A stretch of DNA of 64,000 bases from an uncultured Clostridia bacterium (GTDB taxonomy: Bacteria; Bacillota; Clostridia; Christensenellales; UBA1242), in the NCBI GenBank assembly GCA_947589025.1, contig CANQAY010000004.1, positions 32,430 through 96,429 on the forward strand, written 5' to 3'. The position numbers and the translations under genes are program-made. The notes under the pieces are model-generated. The model did no database searches, was not told where the DNA came from, and worked only from the letters and a program-made list of their open reading frames with translations. Of the stretch, positions 18,116 to 24,689 are shown piece after piece. Position 1 is the stretch's first letter. Every line of letters begins with the position of its first letter.

Positions 18116-18145
18116 AAAAAATAGGGCATAACGCCTTATTTTTTA
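18116..18145. terminator. Bidirectional terminator
   Basis: AAAAAATAGGGC-ATAAC-GCCTTATTTTTT between convergent genes. Confidence 0.75.
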
Positions 18146-18673
18146 TACATTTTTTGTGTCATTAATCATTGATTTATACATTGCCTTTAATTGTTTATAA
18201 ATATATCTTTTGCCGCGTTTAAAACGAAGATCTTTGGCAAGTTGCCTAACACATTCAACATCTCCTGTCGATCTAAGGGCCTCAAACAAACCATCCAACC
18301 ACCAAGCGTCGTATTCAATAAATTTGGCTATATATTTAGCATTTTTTAATTCACAAACATAATCCTTAACTTGAATGATAGTAAAGCCGGGGATAGCACC
18401 GCTGTTAAAATCTTTATGCAAATTTATCATAAATTCATCATCTACACCATTTTCGGTAATATATGCAATTCTTTCATTTAATAATGCGTGAGCCTCTTCT
18501 TTTGTATAATTACTTTTCCCATAACTTGACTCCCACAAGTCATTGCTATTATCTGCATAATAAGTAGCGCCCGCAAAAACAAAGTTTCCAGATTTATCCT
18601 TTTCACCAATTTGCAAATCGTTTAAATAATTTTGAACTAATTTATTTAATAAACTAACATTTTCTGCTTTCAT
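18143..18673 (-). CDS. Hypothetical protein at the usual pyrH position
   Basis: 176-aa ORF from ATG 18673 with AAGGAG SD and TTGACA-N17-TAAATT promoter (18693-18721). Confidence 0.7.
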
Positions 18674-18796
18674 AAATTTACTCCTTGTATATAATTTAGC
18701 ATAATATTGCAAATTTGTCAACACCTAAAATAAATTATAAACTTAAAACAGTTGCTATTTTTTGATAAATTCGCTATCATTATATTAGGAGATTTT

Positions 18797-19363: not shown

Positions 19364-20083
19364 ATGAACATAGAAAAACTAAAAACTGACCCACGCATGC
19401 CAAAGCACATTGCTTTTATTGTGGACGGCAATGGCAGATGGGCAACAAAACGCCATTTGTTAAGGTCGGCAGGGCACAAAGCAGGGTTAGATAATTTAAA
19501 ATTGCAAATAGATTTTGTTAAAGATTTAGGCATAAAAAATTTGTCTATGTATTGTTTTTCTTGTGAAAATTGGAAAAGAAACAAAGAAGAAGTTGATTTT
19601 TTAATGAATCTTTTTAATACAATGTTAGACGATTTTAAAAATGACTATTTAAATAAAGATGTGCGCATTCTCATTTCTGGCAATTTGGACGACGAGCGCC
19701 TGCCAAAACAGGTTAGGGATAAAGCAAAAGAAATTATGGAACTAACCAAAAATAAAACTGGGTTTGTTATTAATGCTTGCATAAATTATGGCGGCAGGCA
19801 AGAAATTTTAAAGGCAGTTAATGAACTTTTAGTTGAAAAAGCCACAAAAGTTGACGAAAAAACATTTGAGCAACATCTATACACAGCCGATATGCTTCCG
19901 CTAGATTTTGTTATTAGAACAAGCGGGGAAAATAGAACAAGCAACTTCTTAACCTGGCAGTCTACATATAGTGAATGGTATTTCCCTAAAAAATTATGGC
20001 CTAGCTTTACTAAAAAAGACCTTATAAAAGCATTAAAAATTTATATGAAGCGCGATAGGCGATTTGGAGGGGTTAAAGCATGA
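19364..20083 (+). CDS. uppS: Undecaprenyl diphosphate synthase
   Basis: PKHIAFIVDGNGRWA, FSCENWKR, NYGGRQE, IRTSGE.R.SNF. Confidence 0.97.
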   Translation: MNIEKLKTDPRMPKHIAFIVDGNGRWATKRHLLRSAGHKAGLDNLKLQIDFVKDLGIKNLSMYCFSCENWKRNKEEVDFLMNLFNTMLDDFKNDYLNKDVRILISGNLDDERLPKQVRDKAKEIMELTKNKTGFVINACINYGGRQEILKAVNELLVEKATKVDEKTFEQHLYTADMLPLDFVIRTSGENRTSNFLTWQSTYSEWYFPKKLWPSFTKKDLIKALKIYMKRDRRFGGVKA

Positions 20084-20973
20084 AACAACGAACAATTACA
20101 AGTGTTTATATAGTTTTGGCGGTGGCACTTGCCATTGCAGCCAAGTTTTTGCCTGTTGTTGGCAACTATATTTTTGATATTTTTATTTTAGTATTAACTC
20201 TAGTTGCCAGTTTTGAAATGTGCAACCTGCTAGAAGCAATGGGCAAGCGCATTAATAGAATATTAGTTAGCTTTTATTGCCTATTTAATTACATAATTTT
20301 GCTTATTTTTGTTAATTTTGTTAATTATTATTATATCCCATTAATTCAACTTGGCATGCTTGCGGCGTATTTCTTAATTATATTTTTTGCCGAATTGTCA
20401 GTTAAAAATGGGCTTGCTGCCAAAGTAAAATTAAAAACAAGCCTATTAAGTTTGTTGGCGTGCTTTTATCCGGGCTTTTTATTCACAAATTATTTGTTTA
20501 TAAATCACATAGATGCTTTTGCTGGAATAAATCATCTGTCAGTAGTGCTAATTTTGCTTGTTATTGCCATAACATTTTTAACAGATACATTTGCATATCT
20601 TGTTGGCAGAACATTTAAGGGCCCAAAAATTGCGCCTAAAATTAGCCCTAAAAAAACTTATAGCGGCTGCATTGGTGGTTTATTGGGTGGCATAATTGGG
20701 GCAATGCTGGTGTTTGCTTTGCTTAACGTACCGTCTCTTAAAATTATATTGTCAACTTATTCGCTAAAATGGTGGCATTTTATGTTGGTTGGTTTGGTTG
20801 TGTCGGTTATTGACCAAATTGGTGACCTAGTTGAAAGCAAAATTAAAAGGGTGGCGGCCGTTAAGGATAGCGGCAACATTTTCCCCGGCCATGGCGGAAT
20901 GCTGGATAGAATTGACGCCATGATATTTGTTGTTACATCCATAACAATTTTTGCAATAATTTTCATAATTTAA
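20080..20973 (+). CDS. cdsA: Phosphatidate cytidylyltransferase
   Basis: DTFAY.VG, ISPKKT, GDL.ES.IKR...VKDSG..FPGHGG.LDRID. Confidence 0.96.
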   Translation: MKQRTITSVYIVLAVALAIAAKFLPVVGNYIFDIFILVLTLVASFEMCNLLEAMGKRINRILVSFYCLFNYIILLIFVNFVNYYYIPLIQLGMLAAYFLIIFFAELSVKNGLAAKVKLKTSLLSLLACFYPGFLFTNYLFINHIDAFAGINHLSVVLILLVIAITFLTDTFAYLVGRTFKGPKIAPKISPKKTYSGCIGGLLGGIIGAMLVFALLNVPSLKIILSTYSLKWWHFMLVGLVVSVIDQIGDLVESKIKRVAAVKDSGNIFPGHGGMLDRIDAMIFVVTSITIFAIIFII

Positions 20974-20995
20974 TTTATAAAAAATATATTATATT

Positions 20996-22174
20996 ATGTC
21001 TTGTTTATTAAGTTTTTCATCTGCATTAACTTACATTGGCTATATTGCTATAGCCATTGTTGTTTTGTTGTTAATGGTGCTTATTCACGAACTGGGGCAT
21101 TACACAGCCGGCAAAATTTTAAAATTTAAAATTAACGAGTTTAGCGTTGGCTTTGGCCCAAAAATTTTGCAAAAAACCAAAAAAAATGGCGAGGTTATAT
21201 CGCTTAGGGCATTTCCTTTAGGCGGCTATTGTGCGTTTGAAGGTGAAGACGAAGAGGGCAAGGAAAACCCACTTGCATTTAACAATCAAAAGCCATGGAA
21301 AAGGTTAATTGTGCTATTTTCTGGTGCGTTTTTTAACTTTTTAAGCGCAATAATATTTTCATTTATTTTACTGCTTGCCAATGGTTACGATCTAGTTCAA
21401 GTTAAAACAGTGCCCGAACAATCTATAAATTACAACATTATGCAAACGGGCGATGTAATTTATGGCGTTAACAATAAAAATATTGATTTTGTTAACGATG
21501 ATTATATTACGACATTAATAACTGATTATGTTATGAACAACTTTAAAACCTATTCGGGCGAAAATCTATTAGAAGCTGGCGAACCTTTTGAAGACGAAAA
21601 TAATGAAACATTTTATTTGGTGCAAGAAATTTTACCATTAAATATAAAGCGAAACGGCAAAACTCAGCTTTTAGAATGCAAAATTAACATCATTTATGCT
21701 AGTGATGGCAGCCTAGCCAGTTGGCCAGCTCCCGGATACGAAACTATGAACGATGTATTTGGCGTTCAAATTCACACATATAAATATTCTTTTTTTGAAG
21801 CATTAGCACAGGCAGTGCCTTTTACATTTAAATGGGCATGGAAGGTGCTTGTTGTGTTATTCCAGTTAATAACAGGTAAATTATCCATTAAAGCGCTAGG
21901 CGGCCCAGTTACCACAATTAATATGATTGCTTCGGCAACTCAAACCAATTTTGTAAACATTTTAGTTCTGTTGCCGGCCATTGCTGCCAACCTTGCCGTG
22001 TTTAATTTGTTGCCAATTCCTGCATTGGATGGCTTTCAAATGGTGTTTGTGGCAATAGAGTGGATAAGAAAAAAGCCCGTTAAACGCTCGGTTATTAACG
22101 CAATTAATAATATAGGGTTGTTGCTTTTGTTAGGCTTTGTAATTATTGTTGATATTTTGCAGTTTGCACTTTAA
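20996..22174 (+). CDS. rseP: Site-2 intramembrane metalloprotease RseP
   Basis: HELGH, FSVGFGP, PLGGY, FNLLPIPALDG. Confidence 0.95.
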   Translation: MSCLLSFSSALTYIGYIAIAIVVLLLMVLIHELGHYTAGKILKFKINEFSVGFGPKILQKTKKNGEVISLRAFPLGGYCAFEGEDEEGKENPLAFNNQKPWKRLIVLFSGAFFNFLSAIIFSFILLLANGYDLVQVKTVPEQSINYNIMQTGDVIYGVNNKNIDFVNDDYITTLITDYVMNNFKTYSGENLLEAGEPFEDENNETFYLVQEILPLNIKRNGKTQLLECKINIIYASDGSLASWPAPGYETMNDVFGVQIHTYKYSFFEALAQAVPFTFKWAWKVLVVLFQLITGKLSIKALGGPVTTINMIASATQTNFVNILVLLPAIAANLAVFNLLPIPALDGFQMVFVAIEWIRKKPVKRSVINAINNIGLLLLLGFVIIVDILQFAL

Positions 22175-22181
22175 AAAGGGG

Positions 22182-22210
22182 TTGACTTAAACCTCTTTTT
22201 TTGTTATAAT
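22182..22210 (+). promoter_or_regulatory. SigA promoter of the mini-polC gene, overlapping the rseP terminator
   Basis: TTGACT-N17-TATAAT with TG extension; ATG 6 nt later; hairpin AAAAAGGGGTT..AACCTCTTTTT. Confidence 0.75.
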
Positions 22211-22216
22211 GTTAAT

Positions 22217-23737
22217 ATGGAAAAAATAGAGGTTTTAAACACTCTTTTTGACGGGTTAAAGTTTAAAGATGCAGTATATTTAGAAAAAACAAACACTTGT
22301 ACTGCCAATTTTTTATATAATCCAGACTGTTTTAAACCAACAGATAAAAACAGAAAAATTATTATAGATAAATTAACAGATATTATTGGCAATTATGTCA
22401 GTTTAGATTTAAACTTTATTGCCTGTGCATTAGATAAACGCGCCATTGCTAACCACACTTATAGCACAATTGTTAACACTTTTCCTGCAATTAATAAAAA
22501 CTTTACCTATGATGATGTTGAAGTAGAAGTGCACAATATTAATGTTACAGTTAAGTTAAAATTGGCCCCTTCAGTTTACGAGTATGCCACAAGCCTAAAA
22601 AGGGAAAGTTTGGTGGCAGAAAAATTAAAAGAAAGTTTTTTGGCAGATTTTACTGTTCAATTTATAAAAAAAGAGGATATAGTTAATTCTTCCACCAGTT
22701 ATATTGAAAAAAATATGGAGCTTATGGCAAGCATTAAAGAGGCGGAAGAAAAAACAGTTTATGAACTTTCTAACATTGCCGATATCATTGGCAAAAACGA
22801 TTATAACCTTGCAATAGATTTTACAAAAACCACTCAAGTTGTAGAAAATGTTGTAATTTGCGGCGAAGTAACAAACGTTGCCCGCAAAACTTATACAAGA
22901 AAAACAACAAAAAATGGTGTTTCTAAAGAAATTGAACGCACTTTTTATAATTTTACTTTAAAACTAAACAACAAATTTTTGTATTGTTCAATCTTTCCGC
23001 GCCAAGCAGATGAAGCAAAAGGTGACCTTATTGAAGTTGGCATGAGTGTTTGTTGTTTTGGCTCGTTTAGAGAGTTTAACGGCAAACTAAACTTCACCGC
23101 AGTTAGCATTGCTAGGTGCAATTTTAAATTAGAATCGGTAAAATCTAGCGATAAAAAAGTTAATGAAGAATATCACACGGTTTTCCCTCAAAAATATGTG
23201 GACTATGAGCAAAGCGGTCTGTTTGACGATGCCGATAAATTTTTTGAAGGCAGTTATGTGGTGTTTGACCTTGAAACCACCGGGCTAGAGGCAAATAAAG
23301 ATGAAATTATTGAAATTGGCGCCTGCAAAATTGTGAATGGCAGAATAGATGAAACATTTTCCACTTTTGTAAAGCCTTCAAGGCATATTCCAAGAGAAAT
23401 TACCAGTTTAACTGGCATAAACGATGCAATGGTTAAAGATGCACCATCTATTAACTATGTTTTGCCCGATTTTTATAAATTCTGTTATGGTTCAACCATG
23501 GTAGGGCATAATGTTCAGTTTGATATTGGCTTTATTTACAATGTTGCCAAAAAGTTTTCTTACAATTTTAACAACCCACTTATGGACACAATGGAAATGG
23601 CTCATCAAAAGTTGCCCGGTTTAAAAAATTATAAACTTGGCACAATTGTGGATAAACTTAACATAGTGCTAGAAAATGCTCACCGCGCAATAAACGACGC
23701 AACTGCAACAGCAAAAGTGTTTATTAAATTAAAATAA
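22217..23737 (+). CDS. PolC-derived 3'-5' exonuclease (NTD + OB fold + DEDDh exonuclease; no PHP or polymerase domain)
   Basis: polC locus (rseP..rimP); OB motif VVICGEV...GMSVCCFG; ExoI VVFDLETTG, ExoII GHNVQFD, ExoIII HRAINDA; stop right after the exonuclease. Confidence 0.85.
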   Translation: MEKIEVLNTLFDGLKFKDAVYLEKTNTCTANFLYNPDCFKPTDKNRKIIIDKLTDIIGNYVSLDLNFIACALDKRAIANHTYSTIVNTFPAINKNFTYDDVEVEVHNINVTVKLKLAPSVYEYATSLKRESLVAEKLKESFLADFTVQFIKKEDIVNSSTSYIEKNMELMASIKEAEEKTVYELSNIADIIGKNDYNLAIDFTKTTQVVENVVICGEVTNVARKTYTRKTTKNGVSKEIERTFYNFTLKLNNKFLYCSIFPRQADEAKGDLIEVGMSVCCFGSFREFNGKLNFTAVSIARCNFKLESVKSSDKKVNEEYHTVFPQKYVDYEQSGLFDDADKFFEGSYVVFDLETTGLEANKDEIIEIGACKIVNGRIDETFSTFVKPSRHIPREITSLTGINDAMVKDAPSINYVLPDFYKFCYGSTMVGHNVQFDIGFIYNVAKKFSYNFNNPLMDTMEMAHQKLPGLKNYKLGTIVDKLNIVLENAHRAINDATATAKVFIKLK

Positions 23738-23807
23738 AAGAAATGTTTATTTTAGTTGACAGGCTCCGCAAAACTATGTTAGTATATCCATATACAAAGG
23801 AGAACTT

Positions 23808-24689
23808 ATGGCAAAAGTTAAAATTCCAAAGGCCAGTTGGTGGAAAGCTCACAACATGCCTTTAAAACAAATCCCAATGGATAGAAAAGAACTTAAAAAT
23901 TTAAGCGACGATGATAAAACCATTGCAGCAATGGCAACTTGGCCTTCTATTATAAAAATTTTAATAGGGGCAGCAATTGTTTATGTGTTGTTTGCGGTTT
24001 TCTATTTTGCTTTTTCATTTAGCAGTGATGCAAGTTTTGGTTCATCGTTGCAAAATCTTATTATTTTAATTGTTGTTGCACTGTTTTTGGCGCCAAAGCC
24101 AACCGCGTTGCTAGATGGGTTTGAAACAATAAAGGGCTATGAGCGTTTAGGCATTAACACATTAATTGCATTGCTAATTATGTTATTTACCATTCCAATG
24201 AGGCTTGTGGGCATATTTGCTAATATGATTCTTTCACTTATAAATAGGGTTTCTCAGTCTAGCATGTTGGGCATGCCAAGAATTTGCTTGCCTCAAAATT
24301 GTGATTATGATAGCTTAATTGGTTATTATTCAGAATATGAAAAGCAAGCAGTGTCTGCATCTAACTATGAAATGGCACAACAGAACACTACAGATATAGT
24401 TTCTGGGCGTGCTTCAGATTTAAGAAATGAAATTAACGAGCTTGAAAATAATAACGAAATGGATAGTTATGAAAAATCAAAGCTGATAAGCGAAAAGAAA
24501 GATTTGCTTTATAGTTATGAAAAAACCTTAGATGCCTTATCAAACGATATTAATGATCCGGAATATAAAGAAAAGTTGGAAGACGCTCTTCATTCGGTAG
24601 AAAATTCCGATTCATATGCTGCAAGCGACCTTAAAGATGTTCTTAACAGTTATGATAAATATGAAAATTCTAAAAAAAATAAAAAGTAA
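23808..24689 (+). CDS. Hypothetical membrane protein
   Basis: About 3 hydrophobic segments and a charged helical C-terminus; AAGGAG SD, own promoter and terminator. Confidence 0.75.
   Translation: MAKVKIPKASWWKAHNMPLKQIPMDRKELKNLSDDDKTIAAMATWPSIIKILIGAAIVYVLFAVFYFAFSFSSDASFGSSLQNLIILIVVALFLAPKPTALLDGFETIKGYERLGINTLIALLIMLFTIPMRLVGIFANMILSLINRVSQSSMLGMPRICLPQNCDYDSLIGYYSEYEKQAVSASNYEMAQQNTTDIVSGRASDLRNEINELENNNEMDSYEKSKLISEKKDLLYSYEKTLDALSNDINDPEYKEKLEDALHSVENSDSYAASDLKDVLNSYDKYENSKKNKK

Follow-up and report, generated by a model that had tools for sequence, protein, structure and literature searches.

The window analyzed here, a 64,000-nt stretch of DNA from an uncultured Clostridia bacterium, contains at the syntenic polC position, mid-contig, a short open reading frame that we call mini-PolC (Table 1). 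The gene order at the locus is tsf, frr, uppS, cdsA, rseP, mini-PolC, an unknown ORF, rimP, nusA, ylxR-like, ylxQ-like, and infB, the names of the neighboring genes being our reading of their translations. A context of rseP-ispG-[508-534 aa or 1397-1441 aa]-rimP-nusA is common to relatives carrying either the short or the full gene. The stretch was found in three public DNA runs, all from one study, and no RNA runs containing it were listed. The original prediction of a clean 506-aa ORF at the polC locus with its own consensus promoter was borne out by the promoter match and by the rimP-nusA context. The -10 box ends 6 nt 5' of the ATG, a spacing that would imply a leaderless mRNA for mini-PolC. 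A similar promoter, whose end lies 6-8 nt upstream of the ATG, precedes 7 of the 9 genus orthologs recovered from the 13 loci compared, the pattern used having yielded no ORF in the other four (L010, L011, L015, and L017). Annotated names of mini-PolC proteins are inconsistent ("3'-5' exoribonuclease," "hypothetical protein," and "PolC-type DNA polymerase III").

Table 1. Features of the mini-PolC gene and its upstream region, in window coordinates
Feature	Position	Strand	Description and basis
rseP	20996-22174		Upstream of mini-PolC
Terminator-like hairpin after rseP	22173-22200	+	Pattern scan: 11 pairs, then a T run; overlaps the -35 box
Sigma-70-type promoter	22182-22210	+	TTGACT, 17-nt spacer, TG-extended TATAAT; 11/12 matches
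mini-PolC CDS	22217-23737	+	506 aa plus stop, ATG start; orthologs found in relatives
N-terminal domain	22217-22669	+	Residues 1-151; tandem pair of alpha/beta subdomains with type II KH-like topology; homolog of the N-terminal domain of PolC
OB fold	22751-23140	+	Residues 179-308; PF01336 matches in 37/42 family members; hhalign
Linker	23141-23251	+	Residues 309-345; in the place of the PolC N-terminal PHP segment (alignment with full PolCs)
QSGLF, candidate beta-clamp-binding motif	23210-23224	+	Q332-F336; conservation across the family
DEDDh 3'-5' exonuclease	23252-23734	+	Residues 346-506; RNase_T, 1.5e-42
Exo I, D351/E353 (DLETTG)	23267-23275	+	Read in the translation
Exo II, D436 (HNVQFD)	23522-23524	+	Read in the translation
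Exo III, H489/D494 (HRAIND)	23681-23698	+	Read in the translation

When aligned with full PolCs from its own order, mini-PolC is collinear with them across the N-terminal domain and the OB fold, has no PHP segment (ELHxHT...AITDHG), and stops at the last exonuclease helix. By this alignment, the two losses originally proposed, that of the PHP segment and that of everything after the exonuclease, are real. Comparison of 28 short-form N-termini with the pre-PHP region of nine PolCs by hhalign (the PolC of G027 was left out, the motif pattern having missed its N-terminus) gave a probability of 99.6% and an E-value of 5.6e-24 over 264 columns. The Pfam models of the PolC N-terminus matched few of the 42 family members (NI, 0/42; NII, 1/42); we did not take these misses as absence of the domain, because the hhalign result against PolCs of the order is decisive. 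When residues 1-345 were compared as a single sequence with 1.84 billion representatives by phmmer, no full-length PolC came back, and the only two matches longer than 600 aa were multi-stretch alignments of 35-50 residues. In sequence, the N-terminus of mini-PolC has diverged too far from canonical PolC for such a search, with only profile comparison connecting the two. In AF2 models of the N-terminal domain (pLDDT 89.9 for the domain-only model), residues 73-153 matched the KH domains of Era and S3 (Z 9.2-9.5), and Foldseek matched the domain to the ring-building motifs of PrgH (E 3e-4); these middling fold matches (KH type II and PrgH) were used for topology only. Lower matches, to DciA and DnaA domain I, were set aside, their Z scores of 6.3-6.7 being too weak. 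Residues 188-506 of the model, which span the OB fold and the exonuclease, align with residues 218-587 of Enterococcus faecium PolC (9qpc_A) at a Z score of 21.6.

The sole Pfam match of mini-PolC is RNase_T at residues 348-502, and the same scan found neither PHP nor PF07733, the catalytic core of Pol III alpha. The NCBIfam PolC model NF001688 matched by its positions 418-584 only, which correspond to the exonuclease part (E 6e-53), and the whole-protein PolC scores fell below the curated cut-offs (179.8 bits versus 873 for NF001688 and 162.7 versus 1043 for TIGR01405). The best PDB sequence matches of the exonuclease are PolC exonuclease domains (2p1j, 8.4e-59; 9qpc, 2.9e-57). The score for TIGR00573, the DnaQ/epsilon-family exonuclease model, exceeded its cut-off (119.1 versus 71.5 bits), and that for TIGR01406, the E. 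coli-type Pol III epsilon model, lay below its own (96 versus 222.7 bits). The DEDDh catalytic residues D351, E353, D436, H489, and D494 are invariant in 105/105 sequences (a set of 104 without P0120, which was counted beside the 150 listed representatives). These results, together with the hhalign comparison and the 9qpc_A alignment, uphold the PolC-like N-terminal domains, OB fold, and intact DEDDh exonuclease of the original reading. The C-terminus (...AKVFIKLK) has no clamp pentapeptide and no residues beyond the nuclease domain. Mini-PolC cannot polymerize.

The genome from which the window derives (0.96 Mb, 99.3% complete, 19 contigs) has a single PF07733 match, its only Pol III alpha, which is of the DnaE1 type. 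Neither a full-length polC nor the missing PolC half was found in this genome or in the 29 other short-form genomes. Across these 30 genomes, PF07733 matched once in 27, twice in one, and not at all in two that are 69% and 76% complete. The second match of the genome with two (G010) lies on a contig of 2,039 bases and was not accepted as a PolC, being a DnaE-like fragment that shares 35-38% identity with DnaEs. Meanwhile, all 10 good-quality full-PolC genomes, from sister families, carry both PolC and DnaE (G035, 51% complete, was ignored in the tallies, and L057 was omitted from alignment A3). Because the source assembly is in 19 contigs, the case against a PolC polymerase is built on agreement among many genomes. 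It is well supported by this gene content that DnaE is the sole C-family polymerase of the clade, as had been anticipated when DnaE was named the sole replicase. The accompanying expectation of degenerate metal ligands in the DnaE PHP domain failed: all 19 DnaEs have all nine PHP ligands, along with an internal QxxLF motif and the C-terminal domain.

The mini-PolC architecture is not limited to one assembly. It was present in all 24 congeners searched and across the order in 15 families (Ca. Onthoplasma and Christensenellales in the record titles), and the short architecture spans more than 100 protein clusters at 50% identity. In the survey of the order, a stop-free frame of about 505-560 aa was found in 94/150 among the matches listed, and the orthologs of mini-PolC contain no in-frame stops. 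Among congeners, dN was low, at 0.11-0.30; the dN/dS ratio proposed as a check could not be properly estimated, as 23 of the 28 species pairs had a dS that was saturated or could not be computed, and low dN alone is reported. In the DnaE tree, one branch (SH-aLRT 100) has the 9 short-form genomes on one side and the 10 full-form genomes on the other, so that this tree does not reject a single origin of the short form. The reduction of polC appears to have happened once, in the ancestor of a large Christensenellales clade.

The linker, which is modeled with low confidence (pLDDT 58 at residues 331-340), carries the candidate clamp motif. Q332 is conserved in 101/105 sequences, position 335 is L, M, F, or I in 101/105, and position 336 is F or L in 96/105. 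The strict motif Q-x-x-[LMIF]-[FL] occurs in 90/98 representatives (89/97 without P0120) and is missing in the other eight, whereas 1000 shuffles gave 5.2 on average and never more than 13. In 80 of the 90 it lies 22-25 residues N-terminal to the Exo I Asp. Among divergent orthologs from 15 families, 27/28 have QxxLF, the exception being that of G047. The conservation foreseen for QSGLF thus stood up in both sets. In full PolCs of the order, the motif was found at the same junction in 0/3, and their C-termini read QLTFL, QVCLF, or QLSFF; the clamp motif of Bacillus subtilis PolC is likewise C-terminal (PMC12309361). The linker motif seems to stand in for the C-terminal clamp motif of PolC, lost with the polymerase. 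No dnaN was found in the source assembly by TIGR00663, and tblastn with a congener DnaN gave a best E-value of 3.7; because dnaN is present in 21/24 congeners, we treated its absence as an assembly gap, and docking was therefore performed on the clamp of a congener (G014). Residues 300-506 docked on this DnaN dimer with an ipSAE of 0.55, against 0.00 for the best control, which lends weak support to binding. Solved clamp-peptide complexes may have been remembered by the model. In calibration, the 0.55 mark was reached by 58/80 solved complexes and 2/110 mismatched pairs (7 of the 80 and both mismatches at ≤0.60). The docking runs agreed in at least 92% of contacts, with a partner pLDDT of at least 79. 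From the catalytic residues, the motif, and the docking, we infer that mini-PolC may be a clamp-binding proofreader. The first two of these agree with the original proposal to that effect, and clamp binding itself stays a prediction, the docking being weak.

Our best explanation, to which we assign a probability of about 0.6, is that the polC remnant serves as a clamp-tethered proofreader acting in trans for DnaE1. In this explanation, polC lost its PHP domain and the whole polymerase module in place, while the N-terminal domain, OB fold, and DEDDh exonuclease stayed. Since that reduction, as genome content shows, the DnaE1-type enzyme has been the only C-family polymerase and hence the replicase. 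Mini-PolC would work at the replication fork as a 3'-5' proofreading nuclease in its own right. The Q-x-x-L-F motif in the linker, presumed to have arisen after the C-terminal clamp motif of PolC was lost with the polymerase, would tether it to the beta clamp, and the OB fold and N-terminal domain would keep it on template DNA, the clamp loader, or both. There, mini-PolC could clear mismatched primer ends let go by DnaE1, beside the intact PHP nuclease of DnaE1, and the resulting replisome would have two proofreaders. The sequences show the architecture, its homology to PolC, the synteny, the distribution, and the conservation of active site and motif, and it is expected from this scheme that the protein is an active nuclease, binds the clamp, and acts on DnaE1 products in trans. 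A precedent exists in B. subtilis, where the PolC exonuclease complements DnaE in trans (PMC12926913). The PHP site of DnaE1 is intact; therefore, a trans proofreader is not obviously required.

This last point also bears on a rather unlikely alternative, that mini-PolC is a clamp-recruited repair or end-processing nuclease (for excision in mismatch repair, for taking off 3' flaps or damaged ends, or for trimming of the RNase T/Exo X kind) kept as the only DEDDh nuclease of a reduced genome. Mini-PolC is indeed the sole RNase_T/DEDDh family match in the source genome, DinG-exo, Exo X, and RNase T are among its fold neighbors (Z 17-23), and QxxLF motifs occur in many repair proteins too (PMC12309361). 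However, the exonuclease is closest to PolC proofreading domains, the protein still has the N-terminal domain and OB fold specific to PolC and still sits at the polC locus adjoining rimP-nusA-infB, and the occurrence of mini-PolC exactly mirrors the loss of the PolC polymerase. We consider it quite improbable that the protein is mainly a structural replisome subunit, with the N-terminal domain and OB fold kept for a contact such as that with the DnaX clamp loader and the nuclease secondary. Clamp-loader binding has been proposed for the PolC N-terminal domain (Timinskas 2014, PMC3919608), a PolC-DnaX interaction is mentioned in PMC12309361, and both domains were retained throughout the history of the clade, but of the folded parts the N-terminal domain is conserved least (column identity averaging 0.32, versus 0.59 for the exonuclease), and the invariance of the catalytic residues argues for catalysis as the selected function. 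A decaying remnant, a mis-assembly, or a gene split with its polymerase half elsewhere is refuted as far as sequence data go and would be most surprising: the assembly is fragmented and, with dnaN missing, some genes are absent from it, and HMM matches extend a few codons beyond the stop, but the ORF lies mid-contig, its stop-free frame recurs across the clusters described above, the active site is invariant, and no short-form genome holds a second PolC-type piece.

With mini-PolC taken as a proofreader in trans, its relation to known systems can be considered. With PolC it shares, arranged alike and at the same chromosomal position, a homologous N-terminal domain, an OB fold, and a DEDDh exonuclease, but at about 506 aa rather than about 1400 aa it is without the PHP, palm, thumb, and fingers domains, the HhH motif, and the C-terminal clamp motif. 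The E. coli epsilon subunit (DnaQ) is likewise a separate DEDDh proofreader with a clamp motif beside the nuclease (QTSMAF; PMC12309361, PMC10634781), and it serves a DnaE1-type polymerase. The C-terminal tail of epsilon binds the PHP domain of alpha, which is inactive, whereas mini-PolC ends at its nuclease, and its own motif lies N-terminal to the nuclease and is accompanied by two extra PolC domains. Mini-PolC has no epsilon-like C-terminal tail able to bind alpha. The epsilon-like subunit originally envisaged thus holds for the separate DEDDh nuclease and the DnaE1-type partner and does not extend to the tail, and the analogy with E. coli is inexact because the PHP ligands of DnaE are intact. 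In how the system would work, the mycobacterial DnaQ appears to be the closest match, closer than E. coli epsilon. It combines a DEDDh nuclease and a clamp motif alongside a DnaE1 with an active PHP, and it binds the clamp and acts with that active PHP as an "alternative proofreader" (PMC10634781). It differs in its C-terminal motif and BRCT-like extension, mini-PolC being PolC-derived with an N-terminal domain and OB fold. The exonuclease-less PolC variants described from Clostridia and Negativicutes (Timinskas 2014, PMC3919608) are a further case of natural modular reshaping in lineages that pair PolC with DnaE1. As described there, they are the reciprocal case, in which the polymerase was kept and the nuclease lost; mini-PolC is the reverse.

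PolC counts as a hallmark of the low-GC Bacillota. In their openly available text, surveys recognize only three polymerase sets, namely DnaE1-only, PolC+DnaE1, and PolC+DnaE3 (PMC3919608, PMC12926913). We found no description of a polymerase-less PolC in the main texts of the open literature searched. The clade represents a DnaE1-only state that arose inside Clostridia with a PolC relic retained. As a natural deletion experiment, it suggests that a clostridial DnaE1 can serve as the sole replicase, and that the N-terminal domain, OB fold, and exonuclease of PolC are of value as a unit by themselves, which makes the role of the N-terminal domain testable. We regard as evenly balanced the fuller proposition that a Bacillota clade dropped the PolC polymerase, replicates by DnaE1 alone, and recycled these three parts as a clamp-tethered proofreading subunit in trans, epsilon-like, born by the reductive evolution of a replicase, with the clamp motif re-invented at a new site. 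If true, a separate proofreading subunit would have been reached by a second route, and a replisome with two proofreaders would be on record for the second time. PolC inhibitors such as ibezapolstat have been reasoned to hit Bacillota according to their carriage of polC (PMC13003532). Gut bacteria of the mini-PolC clade should be spared by such inhibitors because the target domain of the drug is absent from them, which bears on the reading of microbiome effects.

The short form of PolC found at the polC locus (mini-PolC) is a PolC derivative that has stayed at its original position. The gene order rseP-ispG-X-rimP-nusA was identical in all relatives' loci examined, X being a gene of 508-534 aa in five families and a polC of 1397-1441 aa in three others. 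The motifs listed in the original prediction (DLETTG, HNVQFD, HRAIND and QSGLF, 23210-23224) were all found in the translation. In Pfam the sole match above threshold was an RNase_T (DEDDh) exonuclease, residues 348-502 (1.5e-42), with an OB fold falling below it, and the NCBIfam PolC equivalog aligned over model positions 418-584 only (179.8 bits; cut-off 873). When aligned by MAFFT with full PolCs (the complete form of sister families in the same order) cut to their first 720 residues, the short proteins were collinear with PolC over the N-terminal domain and OB fold, were devoid of the PHP segment (ELHxHT...AITDHG), resumed at the exonuclease and ended at its last helix. The missing PHP segment and the stop at this helix therefore represent two separate deletions, as had been proposed from the sequence. 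The N-terminal homology to PolC is visible to profile-profile comparison, not to sequence-level tools: Pfam NI and NII matched 0/42 and 1/42 short-form members, respectively, and phmmer with residues 1-345 found no PolC, while the comparison of N-termini from the short form (n=28) and same-order PolC (n=9) gave 99.6% probability (E 5.6e-24, 264 columns). The AlphaFold2 model of mini-PolC (mean pLDDT 85.4, pTM 0.49) had as its top Foldseek match in the PDB E. faecium PolC 9qpc_A (E 1.7e-20, 382 columns), a structure whose N-terminal domain is unresolved (PMC12592400); VIA-align placed residues 188-506 onto 9qpc_A 218-587, an alignment that covers the OB fold and the exonuclease and skips the PHP piece (Z 21.6). 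Residues 1-165 modelled by themselves (pLDDT 89.9) formed two alpha-beta-beta-alpha-(alpha)-beta units, and residues 73-153 resembled KH domains of type II, those of Era and S3 (Z 9.2-9.5). The nearest PDB sequences of the nuclease were likewise PolC nucleases (2p1j, 8.4e-59; 9qpc, 2.9e-57).

Features of the mini-polC locus (window positions) and of its product (residues of the AlphaFold2 model)
Feature	Position	Strand	Details
ORF between tsf and frr	18143-18724	-	193 aa; sole match a weak Imm27, E 0.059
Near-consensus promoter	22182-22210		TTGACT, 17 nt, TG-extended TATAAT; overlaps terminator-like hairpin after rseP
mini-polC ORF	22217-23737	+	506 aa
ORF between mini-polC and rimP	23808-24689	+	293 aa; hydrophobic stretches, no Pfam match
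N-terminal domain	residues 1-151		AlphaFold2 model
OB fold	residues 179-308		AlphaFold2 model
Linker	residues 309-345		AlphaFold2 model; confidence low around motif
Nuclease	residues 346-506		AlphaFold2 model

In the window, where neighbouring genes were named by reading their translations, mini-polC lies in a Bacillota housekeeping run of tsf, frr, uppS, cdsA and rseP before it, and rimP, nusA, two small ORFs and infB after it. Its -10 box stands 6 nt from the ATG, with no Shine-Dalgarno sequence (window 22182-22219), and this box ends 6-8 nt before the ATG in seven of the nine genus orthologues recovered (loci L007-L009, L012-L014, L016, L023, L024); one of the remaining two has an 11-nt gap, and the other a 19-nt leader carrying AAAGGA. 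This layout points to a leaderless mRNA, conserved in the genus. The ORF preceding rimP has a promoter-like site of its own (23756-23785), and in each of the five other families examined the gene next after the short form is rimP. In the relatives' loci (L018-L022, L025-L027), rseP is preceded by dxr and followed by ispG; the locus of this genus (window 19364-22174) has neither gene and runs uppS-cdsA-rseP-mini-polC, which suggests that MEP-pathway genes were lost or relocated. The usual occupant of the tsf-frr interval is pyrH.

Our survey of polymerases showed that a complete DnaE1 is the only C-family polymerase in genomes with mini-PolC, consistent with the earlier proposal of DnaE as sole replicase. 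The genome of origin (962,226 bases, 19 contigs, 99.26% complete) contained a single PF07733 match, a 1208-aa DnaE, and the PolC model run over its contigs found nothing beyond mini-PolC. Among the 30 short-form genomes in a set of 41 relatives, 27 had one Pol III alpha match, and the two without any were 69% and 76% complete. All ten good-quality genomes with a PolC frame of 1416-1474 aa carried PolC plus DnaE. A second Pol III alpha match in one short-form genome (G010) was rejected as PolC, being a DnaE-like fragment on a small contig of 2,039 bases (L183, G010:C42); its diverged N-terminus shares 35-38% identity with the order's DnaEs and has the first PHP histidine replaced, and it could represent either the polymerase of a mobile element or contamination. 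In the 19 DnaEs extracted (nine from short-form and ten from full-PolC genomes), all nine PHP ligands (HHDHEHCDH), the internal QxxLF motif and the C-terminal domain were present throughout, so the proteins belong to the DnaE1 type, and the suspected degeneration of the PHP metal ligands did not materialise. DnaE1 is the type normally paired with PolC in Clostridia, according to PMC3919608 and PMC12926913. Short-form DnaEs (G000:C3:9993-13631 (-) in the genome of origin, and L039-L046) had longer acidic inserts than full-PolC DnaEs in the stretch from clamp motif to OB fold, and their PF07733 region tended to be slightly longer (774-864 nt vs 765-777 nt, the lowest value overlapping); these features might reflect either adaptation to a solitary role or drift. 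The genome of origin also has polA, and mini-PolC is its only RNase_T-family match. Across all its contigs (99.3% complete), dnaN was found neither with TIGR00663 nor by tblastn with a congener's DnaN (best E 3.7); the gene is present in 21/24 congeners, and here it probably falls in an assembly gap near the origin. The gene-rich + strand of window 1-42000 has a positive GC skew and a positive AT skew. Purine excess of this kind has been linked to PolC-bearing genomes, and it seems to persist here without a PolC polymerase.

The short architecture extends well beyond one assembly, as its gene occurred in 24/24 congeners searched (48-78% identity) and in at least 15 families. More than 1000 relatives were found in a metagenome protein collection, the best 120 all measuring 502-533 aa; a 50%-identity library gave 154 matches to the N-terminal 345 residues, and the 150 listed were mostly 480-600 aa and included no PolC. 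Within the order (251 genomes), the best 150 matches, beyond which there were 157 more, comprised 94 in open frames of 490-600 aa, 49 in frames of at least 1100 aa and seven in fragments. Among these listed matches, no family mixed the two states, the short form occupying f1, f8, f11, f13, f16, f17, f19, f21, f23, f24, f29, f34, f36, f40 and f42 and full PolC at least 19 other families. Some genera of f42 (e.g., g45) gave weak nuclease matches only (E 1e-13 to 1e-20), and several f22 and f26 genomes gave no match with the mini-PolC query; the order may harbour other polC-locus variants. Across 400 scored genomes sampled from the whole class, matches including the N-terminus were confined to the same order (the genome of origin and 15/17 sampled members), and those listed outside it covered the nuclease part only, nearly all in PolC-sized frames. 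Such frames also occurred in other Clostridia whose genomes measure 1.1-1.3 Mb, so a reduced genome is not by itself enough to account for the loss. The family UBA1242 has been described as gut bacteria with reduced genomes, in an account that does not mention replication (PMC12306168, 2025). In a DnaE phylogeny of 19 rows (LG+G4, quick search; midpoint root for drawing only), one branch (SH-aLRT 100) divided short-form from full-form genomes, which is compatible with a single origin of the short form; altered constraints on DnaE could also contribute to the split.

The linker motif, QSGLF at Q332-F336, was conserved as had been anticipated: Q332 was kept in 101/105 proteins, with L, M, F or I at position 335 in 101/105 and F or L at position 336 in 96/105, and Q-x-x-[LMFIA]-[FL] was present in 27 of 28 divergent orthologues from 15 families, the exception being L065 (G047, family f24). 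In the 42-residue stretch preceding Exo I, the strict form Q..[LMIF][FL] was present in 90/98 proteins; shuffled windows averaged 5.2 and never exceeded 13, and elsewhere in the same proteins the rate was 0.027 per 42 residues. It lay 22-25 residues ahead of the Exo I aspartate in 80/90. The order's three complete PolCs have no QxxLF-type motif at the corresponding junction, and their C-termini end in QLTFL, QVCLF and QLSFF; the clamp motif of B. subtilis PolC is also C-terminal, the general consensus being QL[S/D]LF or QxxLF (PMC12309361). Most simply read, the linker regained a clamp motif once the original had gone with the polymerase. Docking of residues 300-506 to a dimer of a congener's DnaN gave an ipSAE of 0.55 (best of three controls, 0.00), with at least 92% of contacts shared between runs and a partner pLDDT of at least 79. 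The docking mark was reached by 58/80 solved complexes and 2/110 mismatched pairs, and scores of at most 0.60 included 7/80 solved complexes and both mismatches. The model lends slight support to clamp binding, and it may remember solved clamp-peptide complexes.

Mini-PolC would most likely be a 3'-5' proofreading nuclease held by the clamp at the fork through the linker motif, clearing mismatched ends in trans, while its OB fold and N-terminal domain might additionally contact template DNA and perhaps the clamp loader. Clamp-loader contact has been proposed for the PolC N-terminal domain (PMC3919608), and the B. subtilis PolC nuclease is stated to complement DnaE (PMC12926913), a precedent for trans action. 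Of the epsilon-like proofreader in the original prediction, the separate DEDDh nuclease and the motif stand, but E. coli epsilon is the poorer match: the PHP site of DnaE is intact in these genomes, and mini-PolC has no counterpart of epsilon's alpha-binding tail. The better analogue, and a second precedent for action in trans, is the two-proofreader design of mycobacteria, in which DnaQ is clamp-bound and clamp-stimulated and acts jointly with the active DnaE1 PHP without stable DnaE1 binding (PMC10634781). Mini-PolC could instead be a clamp-recruited repair or trimming nuclease, which we consider rather unlikely. That it is mainly a structural subunit is less likely still. D351, E353, D436, H489 and D494 are invariant in the window protein and 104 family members. 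Congeners gave dN of 0.11-0.30 with dS saturated, and sequence conservation shows the PolC relic (N-terminal domain, OB fold and exonuclease) to be under apparently strong purifying selection; a remnant or artefact is very improbable.

The recognised polymerase sets are DnaE1-only, PolC+DnaE1 and PolC+DnaE3 only, and nuclease-less PolCs have been noted (PMC3919608, PMC12926913); the reverse case, nuclease kept and polymerase lost, was not found in the portions available of these two papers, nor was a description of a polymerase-less PolC found in the main texts of the open full-text literature searched. Separate clamp-binding proofreaders are already known as a kind. What is new is the origin of a candidate proofreader by reduction of a replicase, with the N-terminal domain and OB fold retained and the putative clamp motif relocated, and a DnaE1-only clade inside Clostridia.
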